Positions 23,872-53,566 of a DNA stretch of 64,000 bases are shown here, piece after piece; positions within the stretch are counted from its first letter, which is position 1, and each line of letters opens with the position of its first letter. The translations under genes were made by a program, and so were the position numbers. The stretch comes from an uncultured Rikenellaceae bacterium (GTDB lineage: Bacteria; Bacteroidota; Bacteroidia; Bacteroidales; VadinHA17), in NCBI GenBank assembly GCA_964633505.1, contig CAZWHC010000001.1, positions 596,015-660,014 on the forward strand. Direction: 5' to 3'. The notes under the pieces were generated by a model that was given only the letters and a program-made list of their open reading frames with translations, made no database searches and had not been told where the DNA came from.

Positions 23872-23934
23872 TTACAGGTCAGGTTAATTATCAAATGGTG
23901 TCATTTTAATAGTTACAAGGACTTATTTCTTTTG

Positions 23935-24058
23935 TTGCAGGTTGCTGGTTGCTGGGTGCTGGGTGCTGAGAGAACTCATGTCTCACGTCCCACATCTTTT
24001 TTGCCAACTGCCAACTGCCAACTTTCCTCTTCTTCTTCCTCACTACTCACTACTCATT
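23935..24058. repeat. mosaic word repeats
   Basis: GGTTGCTGG, TGCCAACTGCCAAC and CTCACTACTCA words. The inverted counterpart lies at 33215-33240. Confidence 0.75.
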
Positions 24059-25234
24059 TCATTCTCTCAGAGTAACAGCAATCAGCAAATGATTATCATC
24101 TTCCTTTATCGTGGATCCGAGTGCTTCAAGCTCTTTCTTGCGGTCGGGGTTCAGCACCTCAGCTTTTCTGAAATCATCGCCTGAAACATGTGCTTTAAAC
24201 TTCATTGCATCGGTCCAGCCATAGATGATCCCGTTGCATACGAATTTTGGCTCAAAATTTATCCCTCCTGAAATATCATCCTTTAAAAGTTCCTTTCCGT
24301 CAAAATAGCTGATCTGGCCAGTTGTTTTATTAACTATTATCCATTTGGTAATATCCTGGTAATAATACCTTAACATAAGGTATTTTTCATTTTCAAGGAT
24401 TTCGGAAATCGACAGGAAATCGGCGGCAGGGCTTCTACCTGATCCCATAGCGGGAGCCGGTACATTCGCAAGGAAATCCGTTGTAATGCTTTTTCCGTGG
24501 GTATTCAATATCATGAATGGAATAAATTCAAACTCCCTGTTTATAGTATAGATAGTATCATTCAGAAATCCCTTGATCCTTATAGTTTCGTTATGTTTAT
24601 TGATTACATTGTCTACATTAAATCCCATTACCACTCTCGAAATCCTTTTAAATTTATAAAAATTTGGCCTTATAAAGAGAGTATCACCATCCGTATTTAT
24701 CCCGACGCACTGATATTTATTCTCACCTGTTGATGCTGTAAATGAAAGCAAAATATTATCCTGCCCCGGAAGGAAGTCGACATAACCTGGCTGCATTTTC
24801 AGATCAAGTTGCTTTTGCAGCTTAAAGCCGGTATCGGTTTCATTGTAGAAGAACAATTTGCCTCTTGTAAGCACGGCCACAAGGTTCTTTTCGGGCCTTA
24901 TGTCATAATCCGACAGGTATGTATATTCTCCAGGGCCTCTGCCCTGTTGTTCAAGCTTATAAAGAAATTTGCCTTTTTTATCGAAACAGAGGAGCTCGAG
25001 CACTGTGTTTATGTAATATTTATCATTGCCTTCTTTAAGATATCCTACAAATTTCATAAAGGCATCAGGATGCGATTCGAGAGGGATATACCGGATGTCG
25101 GTAGCAATTTCCGACAGGTTCTTAATTTCAATACCGCCGGGGGAGAGGACATCGATGGTCCTGACAGCCTGGTCGTCTTTACTTTTACAGCTGAACAAAA
25201 TCAGTGCAAGGATAAAAATAATAAGGTTTCTCAT
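24059..25234 (-). CDS. lipoprotein, 6-bladed beta-propeller family (paralog 2)
   Basis: Lipobox 'ILFSC'. Motifs 'IRYIPLES' and 'GRGPGEY'. Diverged tail 'EDDNHLLIAVTLRE'. Confidence 0.7.
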   Translation of the reverse strand: MRNLIIFILALILFSCKSKDDQAVRTIDVLSPGGIEIKNLSEIATDIRYIPLESHPDAFMKFVGYLKEGNDKYYINTVLELLCFDKKGKFLYKLEQQGRGPGEYTYLSDYDIRPEKNLVAVLTRGKLFFYNETDTGFKLQKQLDLKMQPGYVDFLPGQDNILLSFTASTGENKYQCVGINTDGDTLFIRPNFYKFKRISRVVMGFNVDNVINKHNETIRIKGFLNDTIYTINREFEFIPFMILNTHGKSITTDFLANVPAPAMGSGRSPAADFLSISEILENEKYLMLRYYYQDITKWIIVNKTTGQISYFDGKELLKDDISGGINFEPKFVCNGIIYGWTDAMKFKAHVSGDDFRKAEVLNPDRKKELEALGSTIKEDDNHLLIAVTLRE

Positions 25235-33425: not shown

Positions 33426-34721
33426 TTATCTTAATATACTTCTCAACGGCTTTATCAGCCTGAATATAAGCCTGCTGTTGTCTGTTATTATATCTGCCGT
33501 TCCGGTCATCTCGTTTATAAAGCCAAGGTTAATTCCATATGTCGATCTCAAACCGTTCACAAGATCAATCTCCGCTATATAATTATCCCCAACGGGTACA
33601 AGCGATAAGGTGCTGATCTTCCCTTTTAGAACTCCATATTCCATGTAAGGAAATCCCGAGAGCTTAATATTAACTTCCTGACCGGTTTTTACTTTTCCGA
33701 GTCCTGATGCCTGAACGTTTGCCCTAACAATTATCCTGCTCGGATCATCAGGAATTACAGTTGCAAGTATTTCTCCTGCCTTTATTACCTGATTGATGTT
33801 CCAGTAACTTGTAAAGGTTATCCTTCCTTTTACCGGACTTTTGATCAGGTATTTCTCTTTCCACTGGTCAATCGCCAGTGAAAGCATCTTAAAGGAATCA
33901 TCGAGGTCGAGCTTATACTGATGCAGTTCCTTTTCAAGCTGTACAAGAAGATCAAGCCTTGTCTCCTTCATCTTCAAAGCCGTTGATTCATTGTTCTTAA
34001 TGGAAGCCCTTAGAGAGCTGTGCGCGGATTTTTTCTGTATCAATGCCTGCTTCGACCTTTCATATTCGCTTAGGGTAACCGAATGCAGTTTACTGTAATA
34101 CAACACCGAATCGCGCTCATAGCTTCGCAAGACTAGATTGAGATCTTCTGCCGACAGCTTCTCCTGGTTTAGAAGCTCTGCAGTGTATTCATTTTGTTTC
34201 CTGATTTGCTGGTCAAGTAGTTTTAGCTTTGAATGAATGTAAGACTGCCTGAGATATTCCCTGAACTGAAAGAAATATGTCAAAAACCGGGAATAGCTTG
34301 TCTGAATTTCACCTATTGACAGTTCTTCAGGCGGAGCATATTTTGTAACATCATTCTGCCAGTCCTGATTGGCTTCAAGAGTGTCAAGAAATGCAACCAG
34401 GGCAAGTATATCATTATATTCGGCAGTATTTTCAATTAATGCCACAGGCTGGTCAGTCACAATATCCGATCCGTTGCTTACGATAAGTTTTTCTATTTTA
34501 CCTCCCGATTTTGCAACCAGCGGGGCAGGGGAGTTATAGGTTGTAATAGTTACAGGAGCAGTAACTACATCCGGATAATTGATAAACCATGTCACCCCGA
34601 GTATAGCCACGATAATGGCAAAAAAGAGAAACAATCCCCATCTCAGGAAGCTTCCCGGGATCTCCGACATTACTTCCTGCAACTCCGGGCTTCGGATTTC
34701 GTGTTTGACGATTTCGGACAT
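33426..34721 (-). CDS. HlyD-family secretion adaptor (bacteriocin/type I exporter partner)
   Basis: 431 aa with an N-terminal TM and a long coiled coil between lipoyl-like halves. It lies directly downstream of the C39-ABC transporter. Confidence 0.8.
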   Translation of the reverse strand: MSEIVKHEIRSPELQEVMSEIPGSFLRWGLFLFFAIIVAILGVTWFINYPDVVTAPVTITTYNSPAPLVAKSGGKIEKLIVSNGSDIVTDQPVALIENTAEYNDILALVAFLDTLEANQDWQNDVTKYAPPEELSIGEIQTSYSRFLTYFFQFREYLRQSYIHSKLKLLDQQIRKQNEYTAELLNQEKLSAEDLNLVLRSYERDSVLYYSKLHSVTLSEYERSKQALIQKKSAHSSLRASIKNNESTALKMKETRLDLLVQLEKELHQYKLDLDDSFKMLSLAIDQWKEKYLIKSPVKGRITFTSYWNINQVIKAGEILATVIPDDPSRIIVRANVQASGLGKVKTGQEVNIKLSGFPYMEYGVLKGKISTLSLVPVGDNYIAEIDLVNGLRSTYGINLGFINEMTGTADIITDNSRLIFRLIKPLRSILR

Positions 34722-34734
34722 AGTCTTTGTCTTA

Positions 34735-34802: not shown

Positions 34803-37169
34803 TTAATTTCCCAATTCCAGCTGATCCCTCACCAAATTATAATACGCTCCTTTCTTTTCAACAAGTTCCTTATGTGTTCCGGTTTCGGCTATTTCTCCTT
34901 TTTCAAGAACAACTATCTGATCAGCATTCTTTACCGTACTTAACCGGTGAGCTACAATCACGACTGTTTTTCCTTTGAAGAATGTGCCAAGATTATCCAT
35001 TATTGTCCTTTCGTTTGTTGCATCCAGAGCATTTGTAGCTTCGTCGAAAAAGATAAAATCAGGTTCCTTGTAGACTGCCCTTGCAATCAGAAGTCTTTGC
35101 TTCTGGCCGGTGCTCAGTCCCTGGCCATCGTTCCCGATCCTGGTATTGTATCCCAGAGGAAGACTGTCGATATACTCCTTTATATTTGCAGTCTCTGCCG
35201 CCCTGTCTGTCTTTTCCTTATCGGGCATATCATCGGCAAGACCAATATTACCTGCTATCGAATCGGCGAAGATATAGCCTTCCTGCATCACAACGCCGCA
35301 TCTCTTTCTCCATTCTGCCTGGCTGAACCTTTTAAGGGAAGTACCGTTGAGTGATATCTCTCCTTTTACAGGCTCATAGAATCCCAACATCAGTTTTAAA
35401 AGCGTTGTCTTGCCGCTTCCGCTGATACCGACAATTGCAGTGATCTTTTTCGCAGGAATTGTAAGTGAAACGTTGTTTAGCACTTTTTCGGAATGAGGTC
35501 CTTCGTACTGGAAAACCAGGTTCCTTATTTCAACATCCTTATCAGCAGGAATCTCTCTTATCTTATCATCCTCAGGTTTCTCCTCATCCTCCTTATTATG
35601 GATCTCGCCTAATCGTTCGAGACTTATCCTTGCATCCTGTGCTGCCTGGGTAAAGCCTATGAATTGCTGAATCGGAGCATTAAGCTGTCCGATAATGTAT
35701 TGTATTGCCATCATCATACCGAGGGTCATCTGGCCTTCTATTACAGCTTTAGCTGAAAGGAAGGAGATAAAGATATCCTTGGTTTGGTTTATCAGAACGG
35801 CTCCAAGCTGCTGGTTCTGGTTAAGCATCATGCTTTTCAGGCTCACCTTGAAAAGCTTTATCTGTATCCTTTCCCATTCCCAACGTTTCTGCTTCTCGCA
35901 GCTGTTGAGTTTTATCTCCTGCATACCTGTTACAAGCTGGACTATATTGCTCTGGTTGGCCGCGCTCTGCTGGAAACGTTTGTAGTCGAGCTCTCTCCTT
36001 CGTTTAAGAAAAAGCACCACCCAGCCGATGTACATCGCACTTCCCAGCATGAAAATACCAAGGATCCCAAGATTATATGTTGCCATTATTATCGTGTACA
36101 TAACCAGGGTAATAACAGCAAAAATGATACTTATCAGGGAATCAGTAAGAAAAGTCCTGATCCTGTTATGATCTCCTATTCTTTGCATAATATCGCCGAC
36201 AAGCTTCACATCGAAGAATGAGATCGGGAGCTTCATCAGCTTAATTAGGAAATCAGAAATGAGAGAAATGCTTACCCTGCTTGTTACGTGAAGGCTTATC
36301 CAGTTGCGCAGGAGCCCGTTTGCGGTCTGACTGAGTGTAAGTATAAGCTGGGCAACAAGTACCATCACCACAAATGAAATATTACTGTTTCCAATACCTG
36401 TATCGACTAGCGACTGTGTTAGAAAAGGGAATATAAGACTGATTATGCTGGCAGTGAGCATGCCCAGCATAAGTTGCAGGATGTATTTTGAATAAGGACG
36501 TATATAACCAAGAAGGTAAAGGAAGCTTAGTTTTTGTTTTTCCTCATCTTCCTGTTTATAGAACTCGGGAGTTGGTTCGAGCAATAAAGCTGTTCCCTCA
36601 TCCACCCCGTCGCTTTTGGTGCTGAACCAGCACTTACAAAACTCACGTTCGGTGTATTTAAGAAGACCGGCGGCGGGATCTGCAACATAAACAACATATT
36701 TTGAGTCTTTTTGCCTTGTGCGATTTTGCTCAGGGCTCAGGGCGCAGGGCTCAGAGGAAGAAGGCTCAGGACGCAGTGCGCTGGGCTCAGAGGGCTTTGA
36801 AATCTGCTCAAGGCTTTGGGGTTTTGCTCTGCGCTCTGTGCTCTGAGCTCTTTGCTCTGTGCTCTGCGCTCTGCGCTTCTTGATTTTATACACCACCACG
36901 AAGTGTCTCTGATTCCAGTGCACAATGCACGGTAGTGGCACTTCATCGCAGAGCTGTTCCCATGTGAGTCGGTAGCCTCTTGTACGGAAGCCTATGCTTT
37001 CGGCGGCATCACTGATGCCAAGCATTGAGACTCCCGATTTTGTTATGAATGATTTTGAACGGAGACATTGTAATTGATATGATTTTCCATAATATTTTGC
37101 AACCATGCGAAGGCATGATGGACCGCAATCCATAGAGTCGAGCTGCCTAAAAAGTGGAAACTCAGGCAT
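34803..37169 (-). CDS. C39 peptidase domain-containing ABC transporter (double-glycine leader processing/export)
   Basis: 788 aa. C39 catalytic Cys in 'QLDSMDCGPSCL' and His in 'QRHFVVVY'. Six TM segments. Walker A 'GISGSGKTT', signature 'LSTGQKQR', Walker B 'FIFFDEAT'. Confidence 0.9.
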   Translation of the reverse strand: MPEFPLFRQLDSMDCGPSCLRMVAKYYGKSYQLQCLRSKSFITKSGVSMLGISDAAESIGFRTRGYRLTWEQLCDEVPLPCIVHWNQRHFVVVYKIKKRRAQSTEQRAQSTERRAKPQSLEQISKPSEPSALRPEPSSSEPCALSPEQNRTRQKDSKYVVYVADPAAGLLKYTEREFCKCWFSTKSDGVDEGTALLLEPTPEFYKQEDEEKQKLSFLYLLGYIRPYSKYILQLMLGMLTASIISLIFPFLTQSLVDTGIGNSNISFVVMVLVAQLILTLSQTANGLLRNWISLHVTSRVSISLISDFLIKLMKLPISFFDVKLVGDIMQRIGDHNRIRTFLTDSLISIIFAVITLVMYTIIMATYNLGILGIFMLGSAMYIGWVVLFLKRRRELDYKRFQQSAANQSNIVQLVTGMQEIKLNSCEKQKRWEWERIQIKLFKVSLKSMMLNQNQQLGAVLINQTKDIFISFLSAKAVIEGQMTLGMMMAIQYIIGQLNAPIQQFIGFTQAAQDARISLERLGEIHNKEDEEKPEDDKIREIPADKDVEIRNLVFQYEGPHSEKVLNNVSLTIPAKKITAIVGISGSGKTTLLKLMLGFYEPVKGEISLNGTSLKRFSQAEWRKRCGVVMQEGYIFADSIAGNIGLADDMPDKEKTDRAAETANIKEYIDSLPLGYNTRIGNDGQGLSTGQKQRLLIARAVYKEPDFIFFDEATNALDATNERTIMDNLGTFFKGKTVVIVAHRLSTVKNADQIVVLEKGEIAETGTHKELVEKKGAYYNLVRDQLELGN
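36711..36875. repeat. in-frame low-complexity word-repeat insertion inside the C39 domain
   Basis: About 55 codons ('RAQSTEQRAQSTERRAKPQSLEQ...EPCALSPEQNRTRQ') lie between 'HFVVVYKIKKR' and 'DSKYVVYVADP'. The DNA consists of GCAGAGC/CAGGGC words. Confidence 0.8.
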
Positions 37170-37177
37170 AACCGTTA

Positions 37178-38362
37178 CTATTTTAAACTTACCAGTACCA
37201 GAACAGGATTATCTGTGGCTTTCAAGCTATTTGCCAGCCTTTCAAGTTCTTTTTTCTTCTCGAGGTATTTTGGTGTTGAATTCTTAAATGCATCAGTTGC
37301 AACATAGGTTTTAAGTGAAAGCGCTTCAATCCATGTGACAAATGTGTTGTCATTTTTTATGGTTTTTGGCAAAATATTGGGTCCTCCATCCAAATCATTA
37401 ATTATTCCCTTTTCTGAAGAAAATAACATTCCTGATATATTCTTTTTGGAACTGATAAATGTTAAACCTTCTTCATCTTTCCCATTAATAGAATATATAA
37501 ATTCATAAAATACATATTCTTTGGTTTCAAATAAATTCATAGGTGTAATAAAGTGTTTGGCTAAAAAATTTGCCGTAGATGTATTCCTTGCGTTTGGTGT
37601 TAGTCGAAGGTTACCTACATCAATAATTAAATAAGGTTTAAAGGTCCTATTTGAGAAAAGAAATACGGTATCGCAATATATTTCTTTCTTTAATAGCTGG
37701 TTGTTGAAACGATAGAAAATATTCTCATACGGATAAGTTAATGAGGGTTTTGCAATTTTTTCCCATTTATATCTGTTTGGAAAAGACTTGATATTTTTTC
37801 CGGTTGTATCGATAAAATTGTAGCTATTTTCTACATTAGCCGCATTATTTTCATTATAGCATAGTATTCCATCATTTGTTATTTTGAACTGAACAGCCCC
37901 AATTAGTGGGCTCTTAAAGGTTCTCATAAGTTTACCACCTTTATTATATACCAGGAACTTTCTCAACCATCCATCAACTATATAAATCGATTCATTTTGT
38001 GGATTAATATCAATATCATGAGCCGTTGTAATTTCACCTGGCCCCCTGCCTTCACTTCCAATTTTGGATACAAATGAACCATCATATAAGAACATATTGA
38101 TTTCAGTAGAATTATTGTTTGTTAAGAAATAACTTCTGCTAAAAACTACCTTTCTAATCCGTGAAATAATACTTTGATCCGAAGTTTCCAATGGGATATA
38201 CCGAATATCGATTGCACCCAAATCAGATAATTTTACATCAACCTTTTTAGGTAATTTTCTTAAATCAATTTTTATAGGTTGACATTCTGTAGTTAAGGAC
38301 AAAATCAGCCAATTTATTAATAGCGTTACCAACAGAATTCTGATTCTTAATAAAGTAAGCAT
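37178..38362 (-). CDS. secreted 6-bladed beta-propeller family protein (paralog 3)
   Basis: Motifs 'IRYIPLET' and 'GRGPGE' with tail 'ATDNPVLVLVSLK'. Its stop is 8 bp before the ABC transporter start. Confidence 0.7.
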   Translation of the reverse strand: MLTLLRIRILLVTLLINWLILSLTTECQPIKIDLRKLPKKVDVKLSDLGAIDIRYIPLETSDQSIISRIRKVVFSRSYFLTNNNSTEINMFLYDGSFVSKIGSEGRGPGEITTAHDIDINPQNESIYIVDGWLRKFLVYNKGGKLMRTFKSPLIGAVQFKITNDGILCYNENNAANVENSYNFIDTTGKNIKSFPNRYKWEKIAKPSLTYPYENIFYRFNNQLLKKEIYCDTVFLFSNRTFKPYLIIDVGNLRLTPNARNTSTANFLAKHFITPMNLFETKEYVFYEFIYSINGKDEEGLTFISSKKNISGMLFSSEKGIINDLDGGPNILPKTIKNDNTFVTWIEALSLKTYVATDAFKNSTPKYLEKKKELERLANSLKATDNPVLVLVSLK

Positions 38363-38461
38363 AGGCTTTGTTTTATAATGTTGAGAATAAGTCTTGTTTT
38401 TAGGATTATTTTAATAAAATGATCTTTAGGTTTATCATATTTCATTCTCACTTTTTACTTA

Positions 38462-39922
38462 GTCGATCCTTAGAAAATCAGAATTTATAATATTCTAACT
38501 GGATCTGATATTTCCAGACCAGTTTTTCAATAATTTCATTTAAGACACAGATAACCGATTCACGGATTTTCTGTAGCATCTTCATCATATTGAATGCTGC
38601 TCCAGCCAGAAGCGTGTTAATCATGTCACCTTCAACACCTTTGAGATAATTTCTGAGCATCCGGTGATCTTGTTTGATATGTCCAATGATTGGTTCTATC
38701 GATGCTCTTCTTCGGAACCGTTCTCTATCCATGGCTTTTTGATAAGCGGTTCTGCCTTTCCCAGAGCCTGGTATTTTTATATTGACTCCAAGAATGCTCT
38801 TTCGTCCCTTGCAACCTCTATCTACCAATGCTGTTTCAGGTAATTTGCCAATGAGATCTTCAACCTGCATAAGCTGAGGTTCAATAGCATGTCCGTCATA
38901 AATATTATCTTCAAATGCCAGAGCTCCAACCACTATTCCACTCTTTTTGGTCAAAGCAAAACAGCTTTTGTTCCCGAACTCGTATTTCTTATGTTCTTTA
39001 CCTTTTGAGATGCATTTTACTTCAGGTGCATGGAAGCTGTACAATTTATTTTTATCGTTCCTTTTCTGCCCCAGTACAAGAAGGTATAGCCACAACTGTT
39101 CATCATAACATGTTAACCTGTCACGCTCATCAAGATTACGTTCAACATCTCTCACCAGACGACCGGCAATGGTTTTAAGCTTTCGGGCTGCAGCATTTGC
39201 TTTCTTCATCCTTTTCGGATGTTCCCGGAACCTCTGGTCGATCATTAACTGTTTTACTATCCGGGTATAACGTTGGCGCAGCTTTATGTTCTCTTTTTCA
39301 GCTATTTTCAGGCATCCTTCTATTATCTTTCTATGAAGCTTAGAGTCGGTCGGGAATGTTATGTTTTTCTCCTGGACAGTGGTGTCAATCAGGATTTCTT
39401 TCTCATGGACTTCTTTGGATTCGAAGAGGCTTATGCTGAGTTTTAATATTTTCTGTGCTCCTTCTTCACCGATACGTTTACGGAAGTGTACAAAATCACT
39501 CGGATCATACGGCTTATCATATTGAAAGTAAACTTCTCCACATAAGTATTGCCAATACGGATTTTCAATCCATCGTTCAACAAATGTTTCATCTCCAAGA
39601 TTATACATCTGCTTCAGCAACATACTGCCAACCATCTTTCTTATTGGAACCGCTGGTCTTCCAAGCTCTGGGTAATAAACTGAGAACTCTTTCTCCACTT
39701 TTTCCCAGTCAATTTTCTGAGCCAGAATGACAAGTTCATGCTCCATATTGATGATATTTACTAAGGGAATGCGAAAGACATTCAGTTGCGGATTTCTTGG
39801 AATTTTTCCTTTCATTTTGCAAGGTTTTTATCGAATTTACTGATTACCTTGCAGATAATCAAAATATTTTATGAACATTAATTGTTAATAATCAACACGT
39901 TAACCACTTTTTAAGGATCGAC
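38462..39922 (-). mobile_element. IS5-family insertion sequence (1461 bp)
   Basis: Imperfect terminal inverted repeats GTCGATCCTTA(G/A)AAA. The direct repeat TACTTA lies at 38456-38461 and 39923-39928. There is a single transposase ORF. Confidence 0.85.
38478..39815 (-). CDS. IS5-family DDE transposase
   Basis: 445 aa. The N-terminal InsH/DUF772-like region ('ELGRPAVPIRKMVGSMLLKQMYNLGDE') and the C-terminal 'RASIEPIIGHIK' are typical of IS5/IS4-superfamily transposases. Confidence 0.85.
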   Translation of the reverse strand: MKGKIPRNPQLNVFRIPLVNIINMEHELVILAQKIDWEKVEKEFSVYYPELGRPAVPIRKMVGSMLLKQMYNLGDETFVERWIENPYWQYLCGEVYFQYDKPYDPSDFVHFRKRIGEEGAQKILKLSISLFESKEVHEKEILIDTTVQEKNITFPTDSKLHRKIIEGCLKIAEKENIKLRQRYTRIVKQLMIDQRFREHPKRMKKANAAARKLKTIAGRLVRDVERNLDERDRLTCYDEQLWLYLLVLGQKRNDKNKLYSFHAPEVKCISKGKEHKKYEFGNKSCFALTKKSGIVVGALAFEDNIYDGHAIEPQLMQVEDLIGKLPETALVDRGCKGRKSILGVNIKIPGSGKGRTAYQKAMDRERFRRRASIEPIIGHIKQDHRMLRNYLKGVEGDMINTLLAGAAFNMMKMLQKIRESVICVLNEIIEKLVWKYQIQLEYYKF

Positions 39923-39994
39923 TACTTAGCCAAAGAGAAAATGGATCATGAATTTCTCATTCGATATTTGACTTAGAGTCATTTATTTAAATCT

Positions 39995-40096: not shown

Positions 40097-40306
40097 TCAA
40101 ATAATGCATTGCCATACACCCCAACCACCCCATTTATTATAACAATCAGTATTACAATCGTATGGGGTTGATTGAATATACTCTGTTCCTCCTCCTACAA
40201 TATGGCATTCACAACATGTAGAATCATATCCTCCTTTTAAGGTAACTAATTCTTCATGGTTCATTAATTTTTCAGAATTGATCTGCAATTTATTAAGCTT
40301 TTTCAT
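40097..40306 (-). CDS. double-glycine-leader, Cys-rich precursor peptide 1
   Basis: 69 aa. The 26-aa leader is 'MKKLNKLQINSEKLMNHEELVTLKGG'. The 43-aa core has 6 Cys and starts 'YD'. Confidence 0.85.
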   Translation of the reverse strand: MKKLNKLQINSEKLMNHEELVTLKGGYDSTCCECHIVGGGTEYIQSTPYDCNTDCYNKWGGWGVWQCII

Positions 40307-41962: not shown

Positions 41963-42160
41963 TCACGGACTTGTACATATTTTACTTTCCGGAAAGCCGG
42001 GAACATCACTGCAACGTTGGCAAGGGAAATAACATTGAGACTCTAATGTGCAAAAATATCCACATGGTGGATCATAATCATACCCTCCTCTTAACTGTAT
42101 CAATTCTCTTTCGTTTAATGAAATTCCAGATATAAGTTTTATTTTATTAAGTTTCTTCAT
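41963..42160 (-). CDS. double-glycine-leader, Cys-rich precursor peptide 2
   Basis: 65 aa. The 26-aa leader is 'MKKLNKIKLISGISLNERELIQLRGG'. The 39-aa core has 6 Cys and starts 'YD'. Confidence 0.85.
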   Translation of the reverse strand: MKKLNKIKLISGISLNERELIQLRGGYDYDPPCGYFCTLESQCYFPCQRCSDVPGFPESKICTSP

Positions 42161-42433: not shown

Positions 42434-42757
42434 TTAATTAACAGCATTTACTTTAAAACTTACTTCCTCTTTCCCTTTAAAAATCTCTCTGAAATTCCTT
42501 AAATCGTCAATTTCATATTGGGCCGGGAGTTTGTAACCGTTAATGAAAAAAGTGGGAGTGCCGAGAACATTGCACTCTTTAAAAAGACGTCCGGTTTCGT
42601 CACTGATTCTGCCTGAGCTATCACTTTCCTCAGGAATACATAGGCCTTCTGTGATCTTTGTCCTGGAATAGGGATCCGCGTTAAACCATTGCTCCAGTAA
42701 TTCTGATGACTCCGCTTCTCTACCTTGTCTGTAACAGTTAAAAAGGATTGTGAGCAT
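42434..42757 (-). pseudogene. 3' fragment of a VKOR/thioredoxin-fusion paralog (thioredoxin C-terminal part only)
   Basis: The 107-aa ORF aligns along its whole length to the last ~107 aa of 44701..46326 ('LEQWFNADPYSRTKITEGLCIPE', 'GTPTFFINGYKLPAQYEIDDLR'). The CxxC motif and everything upstream are missing. Confidence 0.8.
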
Positions 42758-42789
42758 TTTGTTATATGATGAAAGTAGAACAAGATTTA

Positions 42790-42906
42790 TAAATATTTAA
42801 TCCATTTCATTGCATGGTTGATAGACCATAAAACATGGCAATCCTGAATAGGTAGTATAACGGACCACAGTCCATGTAATCGAGCTGTTTGATCAAATTC
42901 GTACAT
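42790..42906 (-). pseudogene. frameshifted remnant of a C39-ABC transporter 5' end
   Basis: The minus strand reads 'MYEF' and then, in the +1 frame, 'KQLDYMDCGPLYYLFRIAMFYG'. Compare 'MPEFPLFRQLDSMDCGPSCLRMVAKYYG' of 34803..37169. Confidence 0.65.
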
Positions 42907-42911
42907 GATTA

Positions 42912-44111
42912 CTATTTTTTCAAACTTACAAGCACCAAAATCGGATTATCCGTCTCTTTTATACTATCTGCCAGAACTTCAAGCTCTTTTTTCTTTTCTA
43001 TGTATTTAGGTTGGGAGTTCTTAAAATCTTCAGAAGCTACATATTCTTTTAGATTTTTTGCATCAATCCAACTGATAACAGTTTTGTTATCTTTAATTGT
43101 TTTAGGTAAAAAGGAAGGCCCACCATCCAAGTCATTAATTATACCCTGGTCCGCATCAATAAAAGCCTGAAATTCTGTTGTTTTAGATCCAATAAATCCA
43201 TATAGTATATTTTTGGTTCCAGGTTTAAAACTATAGGTGTATTCATAATAGACAAAATCACCAAATTCGAACAAGTGTGTTGGCCGGATGAAATTTTCCG
43301 CGAGGTAGGATAAATCAAACTGTGCACGCGCTTCGGGAGTTATCAATCTGTCCCCGGTCGCCAGGACAATGTGAGGTTTAAATAGCATTTTGTCAAAGCT
43401 ATAAATAGTATCAGAGTAGACTTCCTTTATAAAAAGTCTGTTATTAAATTTATAAAATAGATTCTCTCTACCGAACACTGTCGGAATCCCTTTATAGGGT
43501 TTAAAAGGATAGTTGTTTGGGAAAGCTTTTAGCACCAGCCCAAGAGTGTCAATTACAATAAAGCTATTTTCAGAGTTGCCCTGAAGATTCTCGATGTAAC
43601 ATATTATTTTTTCTTCTGATAATCTGAATTGAACAGGTCCCTTGAATGGAAACTTAAATGACCTGATGAATTTCCCGTCCTCTGAATAAAGATTAAATTT
43701 TTCCTGAAAGCCTGAAACCAAATACAGATAACCTGTTTTGTCAACATCTATATCATGAGCTACTTCATATTCCTCAGGTCCTCTCCCTACTGTTCCTATC
43801 CTCGAAACGAACGATCCATCAGTTTGAAATAGCAGAATATCATTAAACTGTTTAATTATAAAGAAGTTATTATCAGCAATAAACCGGTGTGTAACTGCTC
43901 TGATATCAAAATGTCCAATCGAATTTTCTTCGCATGTCTCCAAAGGAATATATTCAATATCAATAAAACCCAAATCAGAGAGCTTTAAAGAGGAAATGTC
44001 GGCCCTCTTTGTCAAATCAAATGTTTTAATTTGACTTTGGTCCAACCTAATAGAATTTTGGCAACTTTCTATAATTGCAAAAACTATAAGAAATCTTATG
44101 ATAAGTTTCAT
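42912..44111 (-). CDS. lipoprotein, 6-bladed beta-propeller family (paralog 5)
   Basis: Lipobox-like 'IIESC'. Motifs 'IEYIPLET' and 'GRGPEEY' with tail 'ETDNPILVLVSLKK'. Confidence 0.7.
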   Translation of the reverse strand: MKLIIRFLIVFAIIESCQNSIRLDQSQIKTFDLTKRADISSLKLSDLGFIDIEYIPLETCEENSIGHFDIRAVTHRFIADNNFFIIKQFNDILLFQTDGSFVSRIGTVGRGPEEYEVAHDIDVDKTGYLYLVSGFQEKFNLYSEDGKFIRSFKFPFKGPVQFRLSEEKIICYIENLQGNSENSFIVIDTLGLVLKAFPNNYPFKPYKGIPTVFGRENLFYKFNNRLFIKEVYSDTIYSFDKMLFKPHIVLATGDRLITPEARAQFDLSYLAENFIRPTHLFEFGDFVYYEYTYSFKPGTKNILYGFIGSKTTEFQAFIDADQGIINDLDGGPSFLPKTIKDNKTVISWIDAKNLKEYVASEDFKNSQPKYIEKKKELEVLADSIKETDNPILVLVSLKK

Positions 44112-44199: not shown

Positions 44200-44427
44200 T
44201 TAGCCGACACAGATCTCCTCATTATGATTTGGGCAGTAATAATCACAGAACTGCTGACAACTACCATACCCTGTGCCATAACAAGTATCTACCATGCTCG
44301 AAGTGCAGGTACTTCCGTCTATCTTACATGCACAATATCCTCCATCATATCCACCTCTAAGAGTCATCAGCTCTTCCGCTTTTAATAGCTTCTCATAATT
44401 GATCTGAAGTCTGTTTAATTTTTTCAT
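44200..44427 (-). CDS. double-glycine-leader, Cys-rich precursor peptide 3
   Basis: The start is taken at the internal 'MKKLNRLQINYEKLLKAEELMTLRGG' (26-aa leader). The track ORF extends to 44478. The 49-aa core has 8 Cys and starts 'YD'. Confidence 0.8.
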   Translation of the reverse strand: MKKLNRLQINYEKLLKAEELMTLRGGYDGGYCACKIDGSTCTSSMVDTCYGTGYGSCQQFCDYYCPNHNEEICVG

Positions 44428-44700: not shown

Positions 44701-46326
44701 TTAATTAACAACCTCTGCTTTTATACTTCTTTCCTCTTTTTCCTTAAAAATCTCCTTGAAATACCTTAGATCATCAATCTCATATTGAGCCGGGAGTTTG
44801 TAACCGTTAATGAAAAAAGTCGGTGTGCCCATTACATTACACTCCTTAAAAAGTCTTCCGTTTTCTTTATTAATTTCAGCTGAAATATCATCAACTTCAG
44901 GAATACAAAGGCCTTCTGTGATCTTTGTCCTGGAATAGGGATCCGCGTTAAACCATTGCTCCAGCAGTTTTATTGATTCCAATTCTCTACCTTGCCTGTT
45001 ATTGTTAAAAAGTGTAGCGAGCATTTTGTTGTCGGATGTTACAAGAAGAAGATTTACAAGTATATCTTCATTTTCATTGAGCATGCTAAGGATTTTCTCA
45101 AAAGCCCTTGCACAATGTGAACAGTGCAGACTGAGAAATGCTGTTATCCTGATCGAAGCATCCCTGTTACCGAAAATCAGACTGCTCTCCGATAATGGAA
45201 TTTCATAGTGAGGCTGATTCATCAGAAGCATCCTGAGAATGTCAGGATTCTTCTTAAACCCGAGATATTTATAATAATGCATTTCACCCGACATTTGCTC
45301 CCTCCGGAATAATATATACAGGGTATATATTATTGTTATTACAAGCAAAGTAAGTACAAGCCTTGTAACAGAATCAAAAGCAAAGGTCAGCTGTGATAAC
45401 TGAGGTAACAATAAAATGAATTCTATAATCAGGATAAGTTGAACACCAAGACACATTGGACACCACTTATTCAGAACAACTCCCTGGTAATAAATTGAGA
45501 AGAGGGGATAGGGTACTGAAAGGGAGGCAAGTATTGCCATCAAAGAAAGACCTTCTCTCCCAGGGGATTGTAAAATAAATAATAAACCTACTGTAAAATA
45601 TATAAATCCGACGTCGGCCCATCCGAACCACCCGAATACCTTTGATGCTTTATCATGAAGAACTGTATTGCAGTTTGTTGCCTTGTTCAGATGACAAAGC
45701 TTGTCAGTAATGGAAAGATGAACTTCAAATTCGTGCAGGATCAGCAGAACAGAAAGTACAATGCCGGCAATTTTTGTAAAAACCAGCGGCAGGATTACCT
45801 TATTGTAAATAATCCCGCCTACGGCAAAATTATTGTAATACAGAGAAATGATAAAAATCAAAACAGCAATTAAAGCCAGAGGCATTACTGATTTATTTAT
45901 CAGTTCATTCTTTATTTTGGTCTGATAATCCTTTTCTCCTGATCGCTGATCCGGGTTAAGCAGTATTACTGCGCCGGAACAGCTCTCAAGAAACTCTTTC
46001 CTGACGGTTTTTCTTTTTTCATTGTATGATGTAAAATATGTAAACTGCTCCTTCCCCGTCTCGGTTACAAATCCTATCATGCCGCCGCCTCTGCTGAAAT
46101 GGACGATATACGGCGCTTGAAGATCCTCCAGTTCTTTTAATTCATACCTGAGAGGATAGTTTTCAATTTTCCATTCATTGAGGGTATCGCAGATACTTTT
46201 AAAAGACGGGTAATCAGGATGTGATTTAAGCGCTTCCTTTACGGTACCTTTTACGACATGTAATCCATAATGTTTTACGGCACGTTGAATGATGCCGACA
46301 GTATTATCTTCCCTGGCCCGTTTCAT
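44701..46326 (-). CDS. C39-like domain / vitamin K epoxide reductase (VKOR) / thioredoxin-fold fusion protein
   Basis: 541 aa. The N-terminal ~130 aa are C39-like but lack the catalytic Cys. The TM core has loop Cys 'KLCHLNKATNC' and the membrane CxxC 'WCPMC'. The C-terminal Trx/DsbA-like domain has CxxC 'HCSHC'. Confidence 0.75.
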   Translation of the reverse strand: MKRAREDNTVGIIQRAVKHYGLHVVKGTVKEALKSHPDYPSFKSICDTLNEWKIENYPLRYELKELEDLQAPYIVHFSRGGGMIGFVTETGKEQFTYFTSYNEKRKTVRKEFLESCSGAVILLNPDQRSGEKDYQTKIKNELINKSVMPLALIAVLIFIISLYYNNFAVGGIIYNKVILPLVFTKIAGIVLSVLLILHEFEVHLSITDKLCHLNKATNCNTVLHDKASKVFGWFGWADVGFIYFTVGLLFILQSPGREGLSLMAILASLSVPYPLFSIYYQGVVLNKWCPMCLGVQLILIIEFILLLPQLSQLTFAFDSVTRLVLTLLVITIIYTLYILFRREQMSGEMHYYKYLGFKKNPDILRMLLMNQPHYEIPLSESSLIFGNRDASIRITAFLSLHCSHCARAFEKILSMLNENEDILVNLLLVTSDNKMLATLFNNNRQGRELESIKLLEQWFNADPYSRTKITEGLCIPEVDDISAEINKENGRLFKECNVMGTPTFFINGYKLPAQYEIDDLRYFKEIFKEKEERSIKAEVVN

Positions 46327-47605
46327 ATTCTTCTACTGGTTTTTTGTGTTTTATTAAAGAATAAAAAAGCTTATGCATTGCTTCTGCCATCCCTGCTGCA
46401 GTGAACCTTCTCTCATAAGATCTGTATGATTTCGCGGCAAGCCTGGTCCTTCTTTCCTTGTCCGAAGCCAAGGCAAGAATCGAATCTGTCATCTCTTCAA
46501 TACTGAAGGTAATATCTCCTTCACTGCTGATATGAGGATTAATGAAAATACACTCCTCGTCTGAAAGTAATTCATCCAGGCCGGTTATCCTTGTCATGAT
46601 AAGCGGTATCTTGTTAGCCATCATTTCAAGTACAGAATACGGACAATGGTCATAAATTGAAGGTGATATCCCGATGTCAGGTATCTTGTAGAATTCTGTT
46701 ACTGTTTCCCTGGGTAAAAATCCTGTATATGTTACCTTCCCAAAACAGGTTTGTATCTTTTTCTGGCAATCCTGAATGCTGCCCTGCCCAAGAATAACAA
46801 GTCTGAGGCTGTTATTTTTTCTGCTGGCTCGTTCGAAAGCTTCCATAAGGTAATTAATTCCTTTACATGGATCGATCCTGCCGGAAAAAAGCAGAACTAT
46901 CTCATCTTCCCCAAATCCAAACTTCCTTTTTATTTCCGCTTTTTCCTCTTCTGTAACCTGGTTATTATTTATATGATTAAGACCGTTTTTAATTACAGTT
47001 ATTTTTTCAGGGCTGATGCCATACTCATTGACCAGGAAATCTTTCATATACCGGGTTACGGATACTATATGGTCGGATTGCCTGTACATTTCCCTTTCCC
47101 TCGATAACGTAAACTCGATATTGTCAGCCGGTTTATCAAGGTTCAGGCCGGTAATTTTCATTATCTTTCCTTCGAAGATCTGTTGGAACTGGGCAAAATG
47201 GACAACACTCAGTACTGGAAAACCAATACACTCTTTAATTTTCAATATAATCGGAAGATCATCAATGTAATTGAATTGAAAAATGACCTGTTCATCCAGG
47301 GGAATTATTTTAAATAAAAGCTTACTGACAGCAGATGCATATTTATTTTCAAATGCGCTGTTTTGTTTAATAGGGATTAACGGCTGGGGTATTTTGATTT
47401 CCACACACCTGTCTGTTGTTTTAAGTATTGAAATCTCTTTGACATCTGAAGATTTATATGAAACAAGTACTATTTTTATATTTGGGTAACTTAACAGAGC
47501 CTCTGTCAGCTCATGCAAGTATGTTCCGATGCCATATTGCATTCCGCGAGCATTTGATCGGAAGATAAAGAGGGTAATGCTGTTTAAACATTCATCAGCC
47601 TTCAT
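46304..47605 (-). CDS. GT4-type (GT-B, Glycos_transf_1) glycosyltransferase
   Basis: 433 aa. 'VLLFSGRIDPCKGINYLMEAF' and 'GISPSIYDHCPYSVLEMMANKIPLI' match the GT1/GT4 C-terminal domain. It overlaps both neighbouring genes. Confidence 0.75.
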   Translation of the reverse strand: MKADECLNSITLFIFRSNARGMQYGIGTYLHELTEALLSYPNIKIVLVSYKSSDVKEISILKTTDRCVEIKIPQPLIPIKQNSAFENKYASAVSKLLFKIIPLDEQVIFQFNYIDDLPIILKIKECIGFPVLSVVHFAQFQQIFEGKIMKITGLNLDKPADNIEFTLSREREMYRQSDHIVSVTRYMKDFLVNEYGISPEKITVIKNGLNHINNNQVTEEEKAEIKRKFGFGEDEIVLLFSGRIDPCKGINYLMEAFERASRKNNSLRLVILGQGSIQDCQKKIQTCFGKVTYTGFLPRETVTEFYKIPDIGISPSIYDHCPYSVLEMMANKIPLIMTRITGLDELLSDEECIFINPHISSEGDITFSIEEMTDSILALASDKERRTRLAAKSYRSYERRFTAAGMAEAMHKLFYSLIKHKKPVEEYETGQGR

Positions 47606-48398
47606 TTCTGCAAGTTTTAATTAATTCTCTTCTGTTCCCGATTTCCGTTTCTTTGTCTGCATACCAGCTTGTCCTGCCCCTTGGATGCCATAAATGAAAT
47701 AATGGTCCTTTTGCAAAATGAACAGTTTGATGCAAAATCTCCATCCTCTTAACTCTCTCAAAGTCTTCAGGACCCCAGCCCAGAAAGTTCTCATTCTCAC
47801 CGCCGGCCTCAAGGTATTTATTCCGGTCAGCCAGAAAAGCCCCACCCGTGGAACAATATCCGTACATTAAGGGTAAACAGGGAGCAAGCTTTAACAGGAT
47901 CTCTGCGTTTGGAATACTCCTGAAAAGATCGCTCAGGGAATTATCGCAAACATAAACTCTCCCATCATATGGGATGCTCATAATTGCTTCTTCCTTTCGC
48001 AGGACCATGACGGATTCAAGTACCTGATCAGGATGAGCAATGACATCAGTATCCCATACAACAATAAATCTGGTAGATGCTGATTCAATAAGCCTGTTTA
48101 TATATTTTGTCTTATGAAAAAAAACATTATTGTCATCAATAAATTCATAAAGCAAATTCCCGGTTTGAAAATCAGGATTATATTTCTTTGATTCATCTCC
48201 TTCCATTACAATAAAAGTTGTATCGAAATGTCGTAAAATGAAGCTTATTGAGGTTTCTGCGTTTTCTCTTCTTTTTTCGGAATCAATACGCAGTGGCATG
48301 AGGAAGGTGAAGTCGGCCAAATCTGTCCTGCAGGTCATGCCAGTCGTGCAAGTCCAACCCTTTGCAGATTTATCATGTGTATAAAGGAGATCATCCAT
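47595..48398 (-). CDS. GT-A glycosyltransferase (GT2 / galactosyltransferase-C-terminal-like)
   Basis: 267 aa. DxD motif in 'VVWDTDVI'. 'GGAFLADRNKYLEAGGENENFLGWGPEDFERVKRM' is typical of GT2/GT7C-type enzymes. The N-terminal ~20 aa come from word repeats, so the start is uncertain. Confidence 0.65.
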   Translation of the reverse strand: MDDLLYTHDKSAKGWTCTTGMTCRTDLADFTFLMPLRIDSEKRRENAETSISFILRHFDTTFIVMEGDESKKYNPDFQTGNLLYEFIDDNNVFFHKTKYINRLIESASTRFIVVWDTDVIAHPDQVLESVMVLRKEEAIMSIPYDGRVYVCDNSLSDLFRSIPNAEILLKLAPCLPLMYGYCSTGGAFLADRNKYLEAGGENENFLGWGPEDFERVKRMEILHQTVHFAKGPLFHLWHPRGRTSWYADKETEIGNRRELIKTCRNEG

Positions 48399-48409
48399 TA
48401 AGGAACATT

Positions 48410-53510: not shown

Positions 53511-53566
53511 TATATTATAGCTTTGAATTTGTCAAGACATTCTATTTTTCCGAAGTATCAAACATC

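Follow-up and report, generated by a model that had tools for sequence, protein, structure and literature searches.

A tight propeller/C39-ABC exporter junction as the probable boundary between a precursor-propeller array and an export module in Bacteroidales peptide loci

Gene content of the locus and its propellers

The window (the whole stretch of 64,000 nucleotides that was analyzed) contains the following features of a putative Bacteroidales secreted-peptide (bacteriocin-like) locus.

33426..34721, minus strand: HlyD-family membrane-fusion partner of the exporter (TIGR01843, E 2.2e-27; Pfam HlyD_3)
34803..37169, minus strand: intact C39-ABC exporter (PCAT), 788 aa (Pfam Peptidase_C39, ABC_membrane, ABC_tran)
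36696..36884, minus strand: in-frame low-complexity insert in the C39 domain, tandem heptanucleotide repeats (family D7)
37170..37177, minus strand: 8-nt spacer from P37 stop to exporter ATG, read directly as TAACGGTT
37178..38362, minus strand: P37, DUF5128 six-bladed beta-propeller with signal peptide, final cassette gene ahead of the exporter
38445..39939, minus strand: IS5-family insertion sequence (transposase 38478..39815), inverted repeat pair I2 at its flanks
40097..40306, minus strand: precursor C, GG-leader, Cys-rich, 69 aa, paired with P37
40581..41867, minus strand: P40, DUF5128 propeller downstream of precursor B
41963..42160, minus strand: precursor B, GG-leader, Cys-rich, 65 aa
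42434..42757, minus strand: VKOR-thioredoxin stub, C-terminal thioredoxin part (tblastn, VKOR residues 392-541, 64%)
42787..42906, minus strand: frameshifted C39-ABC 5'-end remnant, ~30 codons, 5 nt past the P42 stop
42912..44111, minus strand: P42, DUF5128 lipoprotein propeller downstream of precursor A
44200..44427, minus strand: precursor A, GG-leader, Cys-rich, 75 aa
44701..46326, minus strand: C39-like-VKOR-thioredoxin protein (Pfam VKOR 2.3e-15, Thioredoxin_4 2.5e-10)
46304..47605, minus strand: GT4 glycosyltransferase, in the conserved upstream module 46304..49510
47595..48398, minus strand: GT2-like gene, same module
48410..49510, minus strand: LanC-like gene, same module
52302..53510, minus strand: P52, orphan propeller (with P53 spanning 52302..54868)
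53567..54868, minus strand: P53, orphan propeller
54898..54957, minus strand: decayed precursor gene (ATG to ATA; reads IKKLNKLQIKAK...; repeat D12), upstream of P53
55186..56373, minus strand: P55, orphan propeller
56587..56943, minus strand: C39 stub, 118-aa ORF with ~100 aa homologous (Pfam Peptidase_C39 E 3.3e-24, profile 2-98 of 133)
56948..58129, minus strand: P56, orphan DUF5128 propeller with the exporter stub downstream
58207..59367, minus strand: P58, orphan propeller

The exporter matched the NCBIfam bacteriocin and NHLP exporter models with scores under their cut-offs, and its C39 insert is a hypervariable loop, of 24-78 aa in related exporters and differing by genome. The VKOR-thioredoxin protein, a presumed disulfide-forming enzyme, has a weak Peptidase_C39 match at its N-terminus (E 2.7e-4, slightly under cut-off), and the nearest relative of the GT4 was TIGR04157 (288.7; cut-off of 400 not reached). 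The LanC-like/GT2/GT4 order was also found in L015, L024, L028, L053 and L041, and the full order of LanC-like, GT2, GT4, VKOR-thioredoxin, N precursor-propeller pairs, C39-ABC and HlyD recurred in L015, L024, L038, L041, L050 and L053.

Each of the three precursor genes is followed by a propeller. The precursor B leader scored 29.9 bits against TIGR04149 (cut-off 25), and precursors A and C scored below. The IS5 element (transposase against NF033578: 463.7 bits, cut-off 275) alone stands between precursor C and P37. In L001 a precursor at 5526-5735 precedes the best P37 homologue (69-70% identical), and precursor C is evidently the cognate of P37, the pair recurring together there.

P37 scored 101.6 bits against Pfam PF17170 (DUF5128; cut-off 22.9), and no NCBIfam model matched the propeller. 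Its AF2 model (pLDDT 92.6) is a confidently predicted six-bladed NHL-type propeller, with 4RAA/BF0058 as best Foldseek match (E 1.6e-16, TM 0.67-0.74). The latter is a structural-genomics target without assigned function; neither experiment nor annotated homologue assigns a function to DUF5128, and no published function, genomic context or mention of the family was found in the literature searched. Most propellers carry a signal peptide that includes a lipobox-like Cys; the motif of the P37 clade is an atypical '(T/A)EC', not a canonical lipobox.

P37, P42, P55 and P56 were the most similar subgroup, as initially annotated (43-51% aa identity mutually, 19-33% to other paralogues). Their C-terminal ~100 aa, described there as near-identical, were in fact 51-74% identical in aa.

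The propeller/exporter junction and its decay

Spacers of 8, 4 and 5 nt separate three propeller stops from the exporter starts that follow; one of these exporters is intact and two are stubs, as the initial annotation had it. P37 stops with TAG, followed by TAACGGTT and the ATG of the intact gene; P56 stops with TAA, followed by 4 nt and the ATG of the 118-aa stub; P42 stops with TAG, followed by 5 nt and the ATG of the frameshifted remnant. These are not three independent copies, as had been proposed, because a single homologous DNA block (71-79% identity) crosses all three; it comprises the final ~240 nt of the propeller gene, the junction itself and the initial ~300 nt of the exporter gene. 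Each copy thus brought its junction along with it, and none had to arise anew. That the decayed copies retain the junction, taken earlier as evidence for coupling, is explained by descent of a shared duplicated or recombined block and not by selection, because the stubs are dead genes. The window copies are nonetheless old, since their propellers are merely 45-51% identical in aa.

The junction was not confined to this genome as recent duplicates. In the proposed synteny survey, 30 loci of other Bacteroidales (MAGs and metagenomes) together contained 35 distinct junctions at which 0-8 nt separate propeller and exporter. The junction was present upstream of 14/19 exporters (74%) at least 80% identical to that of the window, 10/21 at 65-79% and 1/36 below 65%, frequencies which are not an unbiased census, because only loci with matches to the propeller or exporter were collected. 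Gaps between propellers had a median of 208 nt (10 nt or less in 5/56), and precursor-to-propeller gaps were never 10 nt or less; judged against these other gene pairs, the tight propeller/exporter gap exceeds chance. Conserved RNA structure hiding the exporter start was looked for at the junctions and none was found. Together, the cross-genome junctions and the age of the window copies argue that tight operon linkage between this propeller subtype and the exporter is evidently real and conserved.

The decayed junctions were compared with their counterparts. The stub at 56.6 kb breaks at the position of the C39 insert, keeps Cys and His and has lost the Asp strand. It is 83% identical in aa to the intact exporter over ~100 aa, and at the DNA level it is closer to foreign exporters (81-82% identity) than to the resident one (79%). 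The remnant at 42787..42906 still encodes KQLDYMDCGP in another frame and is 95% identical to its counterpart in L020, and the VKOR-thioredoxin stub forms repeat D4, 83% identical to 44635-44934. Propeller, exporter stub, VKOR stub, precursor and propeller stand in this order in the window, L020 and L069; propeller, exporter stub and LanC stub in L015, L070 and L072; and propeller, VKOR stub, precursor and propeller in L041 and L072.

Between the window and L041, aa identities were 92% (GT4), 90% (VKOR) and 95% (ABC) with unrelated cassettes; DNA identity in the ABC gene was only 79% over its initial 150 nt, against 97-99% directly downstream. Unrelated cassettes were likewise found in genomes whose exporters are 80-95% identical. 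Comparison showed that cassettes swap between genomes while the flanks are conserved, and that whole loci appear to have been merged, then pruned by deletion. Where a cassette adjoins a truncated exporter, VKOR-thioredoxin or LanC-like gene, the stub looks like a scar of this process: propellers would survive intact, and of their neighbours a 5' part (exporter, LanC) or a 3' part (VKOR) would be left. The two decayed junctions of the window are probably such scars.

The partner of the propeller and competing readings

A propeller lay within 450 nt downstream of 53/61 precursors (87%) across loci, and core-peptide and propeller identities correlated (Mantel r = 0.60, p < 0.0005), indicating co-divergence. 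This adjacency and co-divergence, the variable propellers beside similar exporters, the mostly exporter-free propellers, the purifying selection on orphan propellers and the lack of conserved RNA structure over the exporter start all suggest that the specific partner of the propeller is the precursor peptide rather than the exporter.

On balance, the junction probably marks a conserved boundary at which a variable precursor-propeller array meets an export module, and the propeller is probably a cognate peptide-binding, immunity-like lipoprotein. The upstream module would be an array of two-gene cassettes, each with a Cys-rich GG-leader precursor and then a DUF5128 propeller, usually with a lipoprotein-type signal, preceded by the LanC-like, GT2, GT4 and C39-like-VKOR-thioredoxin genes. 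The C39-ABC exporter and HlyD would form the downstream module. Because only 0-8 nt lie between the final propeller of the array and the exporter ATG, the two genes would be co-transcribed and probably translated in succession. From what is known of these families, the leader would be recognized, C39 would cleave after GG, and ABC/HlyD would export the peptide. The VKOR-thioredoxin protein would oxidize its cysteines. The propeller would be secreted separately by the Sec/lipoprotein route and would bind the mature peptide of its own cassette in the envelope, most likely protecting the producer as an analogue of LanI lipoproteins and class II immunity genes. Its position directly ahead of the exporter may ensure that no exporter is made without it. 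The immunity role is judged probable from gene order, co-variation and orphan arrays; beta-propellers were reported not to be found among the immunity proteins of polymorphic toxin systems (PMC3482391), which counts against it. Also against it are the related bacteroidetocin loci, which have no immunity gene and self-sensitive producers (PMC6671954), and the atypical motif of the P37 clade.

Possible, if unlikely, is that the propeller instead escorts its specific peptide or assists its maturation outside the cytoplasm; the options named were a chaperone for folding or disulfide isomerization, a carrier that takes the peptide to the cell surface or outer membrane, and an NHL-type enzyme. A chaperone or maturation factor of this kind would produce an identical 1:1 precursor-propeller pairing with co-divergence, and the extracytoplasmic signal, the disulfide-forming and glycosyltransferase genes in the same locus, a weak NHL-type match to peptidyl-alpha-hydroxyglycine lyase (E 0.03) and the invariance of E110, D231, D323 and N385 in 62 homologues agree with it. 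However, no catalytic-site match was found for the propeller, and only roughly one propeller in three is preceded by a precursor; about two thirds have none nearby, in arrays of up to 7 orphans (e.g. Maribellus L056), which would not be expected of a dedicated factor. The decayed precursor upstream of orphan P53 likewise suggests a propeller that outlived its peptide.

It is improbable that propellers of this subtype assist the export machinery functionally or physically, as periplasmic ABC/HlyD partners for which the junction would couple translation and stoichiometry. The 0-8 nt junction is kept in 35 distinct sequences and is enriched in the P37/P42/P55/P56-like subgroup (21/89 vs 3/64 in other paralogue types), and paralogues have conserved blocks in common, among them the C-terminal helices and the final strand, that might serve for docking on a conserved partner. 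Yet just 26/164 propellers abut an exporter (about 85% have none adjoining), a quarter to half of same-clade exporters have no upstream propeller, and propellers ahead of exporters 80-95% identical to that of the window are merely 41-50% identical to P37. The C-terminal block is not uniquely conserved: it is also present in P58 and is just one among several in the 62-sequence alignment. Orphan propellers distant from exporters remain intact and under purifying selection (dN/dS 0.08-0.24; P55 0.13-0.15 against orthologues in L009, L012 and L014), and the P42 orthologue in L020 is 94% identical in aa (dN/dS 0.24). A secreted binding protein is favored over an exporter subunit by the signal with lipobox-like Cys, the NHL-type fold, the 11 propellers vs 3 precursors in the window and the selected orphans.

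We also doubt strongly that the propellers are general, rapidly diversifying envelope lipoproteins for ligand binding or signal reception, near peptide loci for regulation only, e.g. as peptide sensors. The family is huge and very divergent (8544 cluster representatives at E ≤ 1e-3), and window paralogues lie off the peptide locus at 22657..25234 and 61492..62679, but this would not account for co-diverging propellers directly after most precursors, nor for a conserved locus in which no signal-transduction genes were seen. That the junction has no functional meaning and is a by-product of recent segmental duplication in this genome, then decay, would fit the one DNA block but can be given almost no credence against the age of the copies (the propeller identities, and stub DNA closer to foreign exporters) and the junctions with intact exporters in many other genomes.

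The boundary reading, with its recurrence in many Bacteroidales, suggests that a large family without assigned function comprises peptide-specific partners, most likely for self-protection; the linkage of DUF5128 propellers to precursors and exporter is new here.

Comparison with known systems

The propellers resemble DUF5128 (PF17170) and the BF0058 structure 4RAA, as 11/11 window paralogues passed the Pfam threshold and the AF2 model matched 4RAA best. The locus resembles the TIGR04149/TIGR04157 'GG-Bacteroidales' RiPP system (NCBIfam/TIGRFAMs) in the precursor B leader, over cut-off, and in the GT4, closest to TIGR04157. It differs in that a radical SAM maturase is absent among the locus genes and in the GT4 and precursors A and C, which fall under the cut-offs.

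Bacteroidetocin loci of gut Bacteroidales (Coyne et al. 2019, PMC6671954) have four genes, no immunity gene and self-sensitive producers, and their target is BamA (PMC8546649). They share with the present locus a Bacteroidetes setting, a GG-type leader, a peptidase-ABC transporter and a thiol oxidoreductase, which is needed for activity (PMC6671954). Bacteroidetocin loci are without a propeller, unlike the locus here, and exporters less than 65% identical to that of the window were similarly without one upstream, with a single exception.

Glycocin clusters likewise combine a GG-leader Cys-rich peptide, glycosyltransferase(s), dedicated disulfide-forming proteins and a C39-ABC exporter. An example is sublancin (sunA, sunT, bdbA, sunS, bdbB, sunI), and the glycocin immunity protein is a small membrane protein. 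Here the candidate immunity protein is a propeller, and peptide glycosylation is putative.

In class II loci, bacteriocin-immunity cassettes lie upstream of a C39-ABC exporter and an accessory protein, e.g. pediocin pedA-pedB-pedC-pedD, and the pneumococcal blp locus has a variable bacteriocin-immunity region and an often truncated blpA. Shared features are a GG-leader precursor followed directly by its partner gene in a small operon, variable cassettes beside a conserved pair of C39-ABC and membrane-fusion/accessory genes, cassettes that turn over from strain to strain, and both truncated transporter and orphan partner genes. The present locus differs in its diderm Bacteroidales host, in the added VKOR-thioredoxin, glycosyltransferase and LanC-like genes, and in its partner, a ~400-aa secreted six-bladed propeller lipoprotein of putative immunity function instead of a small membrane or cytosolic immunity protein.

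LanI-type lipoproteins (NisI, SpaI) confer immunity in lantibiotic producers. The propellers have no sequence or fold similarity to them, their model matching NHL/DUF5128 propellers; they are alike in being secreted lipoproteins encoded in the operon of the peptide and, probably also for the propellers, specific to one peptide, and, by analogy, in a proposed mode of action in which the mature peptide would be sequestered at the envelope.

Propeller-exporter junctions and the peptide locus

The genes between 33.4 and 59.4 kb of the window all lie on the - strand. Read on this strand, three DUF5128 propeller genes (P37, P42 and P56, named by kb position) stop 8, 5 and 4 nt before the ATG of a peptidase C39-ABC exporter sequence, as the initial annotation had claimed. 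Its count of one intact and two decayed exporters was also borne out. P37 precedes an intact gene, P56 a 118-aa ORF (the 56.6-kb stub) and P42 a frameshifted remnant at 42.9 kb, within which KQLDYMDCGP is still readable in another frame.

Features of the locus (positions within the window)
33426..34721, - strand: HlyD-family gene, next after the exporter
34803..37169, - strand: intact exporter, 788 aa, ATG after P37
37178..38362, - strand: P37, stop TAG; 8 nt (TAACGGTT) to the ATG of the intact exporter
38445..39939: IS5-family element with imperfect inverted repeats, separating preC from P37
40306..40097, - strand: precursor C (preC), GG leader and Cys-rich core; followed by the IS5 element, P37, exporter and HlyD
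42160..41963, - strand: precursor B (preB), GG leader and Cys-rich core; followed by P40
42912..44111, - strand: P42, stop TAG; 5 nt to the ATG of the frameshifted remnant (~30 codons)
44427..44200, - strand: precursor A (preA), GG leader and Cys-rich core; followed by P42
54957..54898, - strand: decayed precursor (ATG to ATA, cut off after the leader), upstream of P53, a propeller without a precursor
56948..58129, - strand: P56, stop TAA; 4 nt to the ATG of the 118-aa ORF (56587..56943)

P37, P42, P55 and P56 formed the closest propeller subgroup, as first described (43-51% mutual identity vs 19-33% to other paralogues). The C-terminal ~100 residues, previously called near-identical, were only 51-74% identical, and the block was also present in P58. 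In a 62-sequence alignment it was one among several conserved blocks, and a C-terminal domain unique to an exporter-linked subtype is therefore not supported. Nor are the three copies independent: a single block of DNA homology (71-79% identity) spans the junction, taking in the final ~240 nt of the propeller and the initial ~300 nt of the exporter, so the junction was passed down with each copy. No conserved RNA structure enforcing translational coupling was found at the junctions, where minimum free energies were near those of shuffled sequences; exporter start-codon accessibility ranged from 0.17 to 0.86, and no known RNA family was matched in the locus at E ≤ 0.1.

The intact exporter contained Peptidase_C39 (5.9e-30), ABC_membrane (8.8e-24) and ABC_tran (4.9e-31) Pfam domains with DCGPSC, HFVVVY and VADP motifs, which is the PCAT architecture, and the adjoining HlyD partner and three GG-leader substrates provide the PCAT context. 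Its scores fell below curated NCBIfam cut-offs (TIGR01193, 394.4 vs 523.85; TIGR03796, 437.5 vs 853.3); the exporter is of the same kind as these subfamilies but outside them. The C39 domain carries an in-frame ~55-aa insert (36696-36884) of tandem heptanucleotide repeats (GCTCTGY, + strand), a repeat that also occupies the ABC-HlyD spacer (34765-34801). Across more than 40 related exporters, the loop between HFVVVY and VADP was genome-variable (24-78 aa), with 7-aa periodic motifs such as RAQSTEQ, DLQDLHD and HASRASR. The break point of the 56.6-kb stub is exactly this heptanucleotide-repeat insert.

Upstream lie LanC-like, GT2-like, GT4 and VKOR-thioredoxin genes. In the VKOR-thioredoxin protein, the first ~140 aa (45900-46326) matched Peptidase_C39 weakly (E 2.7e-4, just under the cut-off), with the catalytic-Cys region left uncovered, and this N-terminus may be a leader-binding C39-like domain. 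The three precursors share the leader MKKLNK...(L/I)..L(K/R)GG; against the TIGR04149 leader model (cut-off 25 bits), preB scored 29.9, preC 18.4 and preA gave no hit. The IS5 element may uncouple preC from the downstream operon. On the 5' side of each precursor is a ~100-nt conserved element (40348-40443, 42198-42293 and 44486-44539) that contains two short hairpins (CCTTTCT..AGAAAGG and CTGAAAC..GTTTCAG). It had no match in Rfam and may be a cassette promoter, operator or leader RNA. Heptanucleotide tandem tracts are also dispersed between genes (33100-33350, 49567-49718, 50190-50730, 51860-52050 and 59830-60060), with units GAGTAGT, GGGGAGAT, TGAACCT and CAGGTGT and often an adjoining hairpin core (CTTCTTCGGAATCCGAAGC); these tracts (D6, D9, D11, D13, D17, D19 and I1) resemble cyanobacterial short tandemly repeated repetitive sequences or a MITE family.

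Recurrence of the junction and exchange of cassettes

Two sets of loci were compared. A pattern scan for relatives of the propeller subgroup, with one genome per species, gave 76 loci, nearly all from Bacteroidales, Rikenellaceae, Prolixibacteraceae, Draconibacterium and Maribellus assemblies, which together with the window held 164 propeller ORFs, all oriented as the query. Cultured strains were among the carriers (Prolixibacter bellariivorans ATCC BAA-1284, L049; Maribellus maritimus 5E3, L056). A second set of 80 metagenome loci was selected by similarity to the N-terminal half of the exporter, and a junction was scored where propeller homology ended no more than 8 codons from the exporter ATG. 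An exporter start lay within a few nt of the propeller stop for 26 of the 164 propellers, and junctions were enriched in those resembling P37, P42, P55 and P56 (21/89 vs 3/64 of others). Among exporter-selected loci, junctions were present in 14/19 with an exporter at least 80% identical to that of the window, in 10/21 at 65-79% and in 1/36 below 65%; several apparently junction-less loci had frameshifted or contig-truncated propellers. Pooled, the survey of synteny beyond the window gave 30 loci with 35 different junction sequences, whose gaps were 0 to 8 nt (mode 5 nt) except for one that seemed to be an overlap (score -7 nt). Gaps between propellers (median 208 nt; ≤10 nt in 5/56) and between precursor and propeller (median 136 nt; none ≤10 nt) were wider, and tight spacing is specific to the propeller-exporter pair. 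Because the junction recurs across genomes, and the paralogues of the subgroup are just 43-51% identical, its being found only here as recent duplicates does not apply, and a pure by-product of duplication is excluded.

The gene order of the window (LanC-like, GT2, GT4, VKOR-thioredoxin, [precursor-propeller] x N, C39-ABC, HlyD) was repeated in six other loci (L015, L024, L038, L041, L050 and L053). Over all propeller-selected loci, a propeller followed within 450 nt for 53 of 61 precursors, the remainder being mostly at IS insertions or contig ends. Core-peptide and propeller identities were correlated (Mantel r = 0.60, P < 0.0005; r = 0.48 once near-identical pairs were dropped). As in a class II bacteriocin-immunity cassette, most precursors thus have a same-strand partner directly downstream that is co-inherited and co-diverging with them. 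The preC and P37 pair was seen again in locus L001, whose propeller is the best P37 match found (69-70% identity), and the subgroup of P37, P42, P55 and P56, above all its P42-like members, accompanies precursors ending in ...VC(A/V)G.

Propellers preceding exporters 80-95% identical to that of the window were just 41-50% identical to P37. Between the window and L041, GT4 (92% aa identity), VKOR (90%) and ABC (95%) were closely matched, and the cassettes were unrelated. As cassettes differ beside nearly the same exporters, the varying unit is the precursor-propeller cassette and the exporter is a conserved flank. The exporter genes of this pair are mosaic at the DNA level (79% identity over the first 150 nt, 97-99% over nt 226-450 and 77-93% thereafter), and across 33426-37169 the adjoining HlyD had 72% aa identity (61-79% DNA) beside 95% for the exporter; this suggests recombination breakpoints either side of the exporter body. 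When the region was compared with plasmids by megablast, nothing was found to indicate a plasmid or mobile-element origin.

Exporter stubs behind propellers were common elsewhere (three each in L001 and L015; also L021/L023, L056 and L070/L072). They ranged from 28 to 146 aa, some lacking the start codon. The order propeller, ABC stub, VKOR 3' stub, precursor, propeller was found in the window (42434..42906), L020 and L069; propeller, ABC stub, LanC 5' stub in L015, L070 and L072; and propeller, VKOR stub, precursor, propeller in L041 and L072. Throughout, the propellers were intact and neighbouring genes decayed. The 42.9-kb remnant was common to the window and L020 (95% identity), and the 56.6-kb stub was nearer to foreign exporters (81-82%) than to the resident one (79%), so a recent internal copy was rejected. 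Its 118-aa ORF covers positions 2 to 98 of the C39 model, which has 133; a working stand-alone peptidase was rejected, since the Asp strand is absent and equivalent stubs elsewhere show start-codon loss or frameshifts. Such fusions are expected if complete loci stood in tandem and redundant machinery between the 5' end of the first exporter and the next locus was deleted, and would also fit capture of cassettes by recombination via conserved flanks. From their arrangement, the decayed copies appear to be scars of array assembly. The recurring stubs also record how loci are built, by cassette exchange plus merging and pruning of whole loci, and the junction marks the meeting point of a variable precursor-propeller array and a conserved export module. 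We hold this account of the locus architecture with high confidence.

The propeller protein and its possible role

All 11 propellers in the window exceeded the DUF5128 (PF17170) gathering threshold of 22.9 bits (58-119 bits; P37 101.6, P42 91.5), and 8544 cluster representatives (50% identity) matched P37 at E ≤ 1e-3. In the confident AF2 model of P37 (62 sequences; pLDDT 92.6, pTM 0.87), three short helices near the C-terminus precede the last strand of the propeller. The model has the six-bladed fold of BF0058 (4RAA), an exported protein of B. fragilis whose function is unknown and which was the best structural match (Foldseek E 1.6e-16; PDB profile search E 1.3e-12), ahead of DUF4221 and eukaryotic NHL domains. 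Most propellers begin with a hydrophobic signal and a lipobox-like Cys (...IS|C, ...LS|C); a crude motif test, blind to the clear lipoboxes of P42 and P55, found a hydrophobic N-terminus with Cys in 109/164, and in the P37 clade the motif is an atypical (T/A)EC. No curated NCBIfam name was matched, with just a weak ScyF NHL match far under its cut-off. The literature searched held no relevant papers on DUF5128, PF17170, BF0058 or DUF4934, and DUF5128, yet with a solved structure, had no published function or genomic context there.

A precursor lay upstream of about a third of propellers (50/147). The window has 11 propellers vs three precursors, and the Maribellus locus L056 has seven consecutive propellers with no precursor. 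Such orphans are intact, with dN/dS values that indicate purifying selection (0.13-0.15 for P55; 0.08-0.24 overall). Three of the 11 DUF5128 genes in the 64 kb lie outside the peptide locus (22657-23871, 24059-25234 and 61492-62679); two of these have a glycyl-radical enzyme gene (19654..22029) on one side and RND efflux genes on the other. A TonB C-terminal-domain protein gene (50740-51564) sits between the orphan array and the LanC-like gene, and TonB-like matches adjoin propellers in L051 and L027 too.

From what is known of the families, the C39 domain would cleave the precursor after GG, ABC and HlyD would export the peptide, and the VKOR-thioredoxin protein would oxidise its cysteines; bacteroidetocin activity likewise requires a thiol oxidoreductase (PMC6671954). 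The propeller would bind the mature peptide of its own cassette in the envelope, most likely protecting the producer. An exporter ATG placed 0-8 nt behind the last propeller would tie exporter synthesis to propeller synthesis on one transcript, and termination-reinitiation coupling is plausible. Orphan arrays, propellers outlasting precursors and turnover of cassettes between conserved flanks are typically features of immunity genes. By this analogy we propose an immunity role, tentatively and at somewhat under even probability.

For the distant paralogues, membership of a general family of envelope lipoproteins or sensors is possible. A peptide-specific chaperone, escort or enzyme would fit the 1:1 pairing with precursors but not the orphans, as a dedicated maturation factor is not expected to outlast its substrate. 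The initial annotation had instead coupled the propeller, translationally or functionally, to peptide export, which would make it an accessory of the exporter. The conserved junction speaks for this, as do conserved blocks common to the paralogues, and the observation itself is real; but the partner is the wrong one, given that the cassette is the varying unit, that the majority of propellers are orphans, that exporters of the same clade exist without a propeller, and that propeller and exporter do not co-vary.

DUF5128 thereby gains a concrete, testable role: the propeller would pair with its own secreted Cys-rich peptide and be encoded directly before the exporter. Were the propeller an immunity protein, the long tandem propeller arrays in Bacteroidales of digesters, sediments and guts would be orphan-immunity collections. 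A wider and more doubtful extension is that DUF5128 is a large unrecognised family of peptide-specific immunity lipoproteins in Bacteroidota, swapped as cassettes with their Cys-rich GG-leader peptide, with orphan arrays cross-protecting against neighbours' peptides and the exporter 5' and VKOR 3' ends serving as homology arms for cassette capture.

Comparison with known peptide systems

The PDB entries listed as matching the propeller in sequence or structure were DUF5128, DUF4221, NHL and other propeller proteins, and no NisI/SpaI (LanI-type) protein was among them; these matches give no homology or fold likeness to LanI immunity. A beta-propeller would be unusual as an immunity protein and would represent a new fold among such proteins; for polymorphic toxin systems, Zhang et al. 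2012 (PMC3482391) noted that no immunity protein of this fold had turned up.

The locus is related to Bacteroidales GG-leader systems. It is not the TIGR04149 'GG-Bacteroidales' rSAM system, as no radical SAM maturase was found among the main - strand genes of at least 100 aa scanned (Pfam/NCBIfam) at 33.4-59.4 kb; the GT4 had its best match to the TIGR04157 glycosyltransferase of that system, at 288.7 bits, under the cut-off of 400. The bacteroidetocin locus has four genes (TM protein, class IIa-like toxin, thiol oxidoreductase and peptidase-ABC) and no immunity gene. The window locus also has a thiol oxidoreductase and a peptidase-ABC gene, but its added propeller, GT and LanC-like genes exclude it, by gene content, from the bacteroidetocin type. 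An immunity role for the propeller would fill this 'missing immunity' gap of Bacteroidales peptide toxins.

Class II immunity genes lie directly downstream of their own bacteriocin gene. The propeller may be a functional analogue of these genes and of LanI lipoproteins, and in its workings the locus resembles those of class II bacteriocin or glycocin type.
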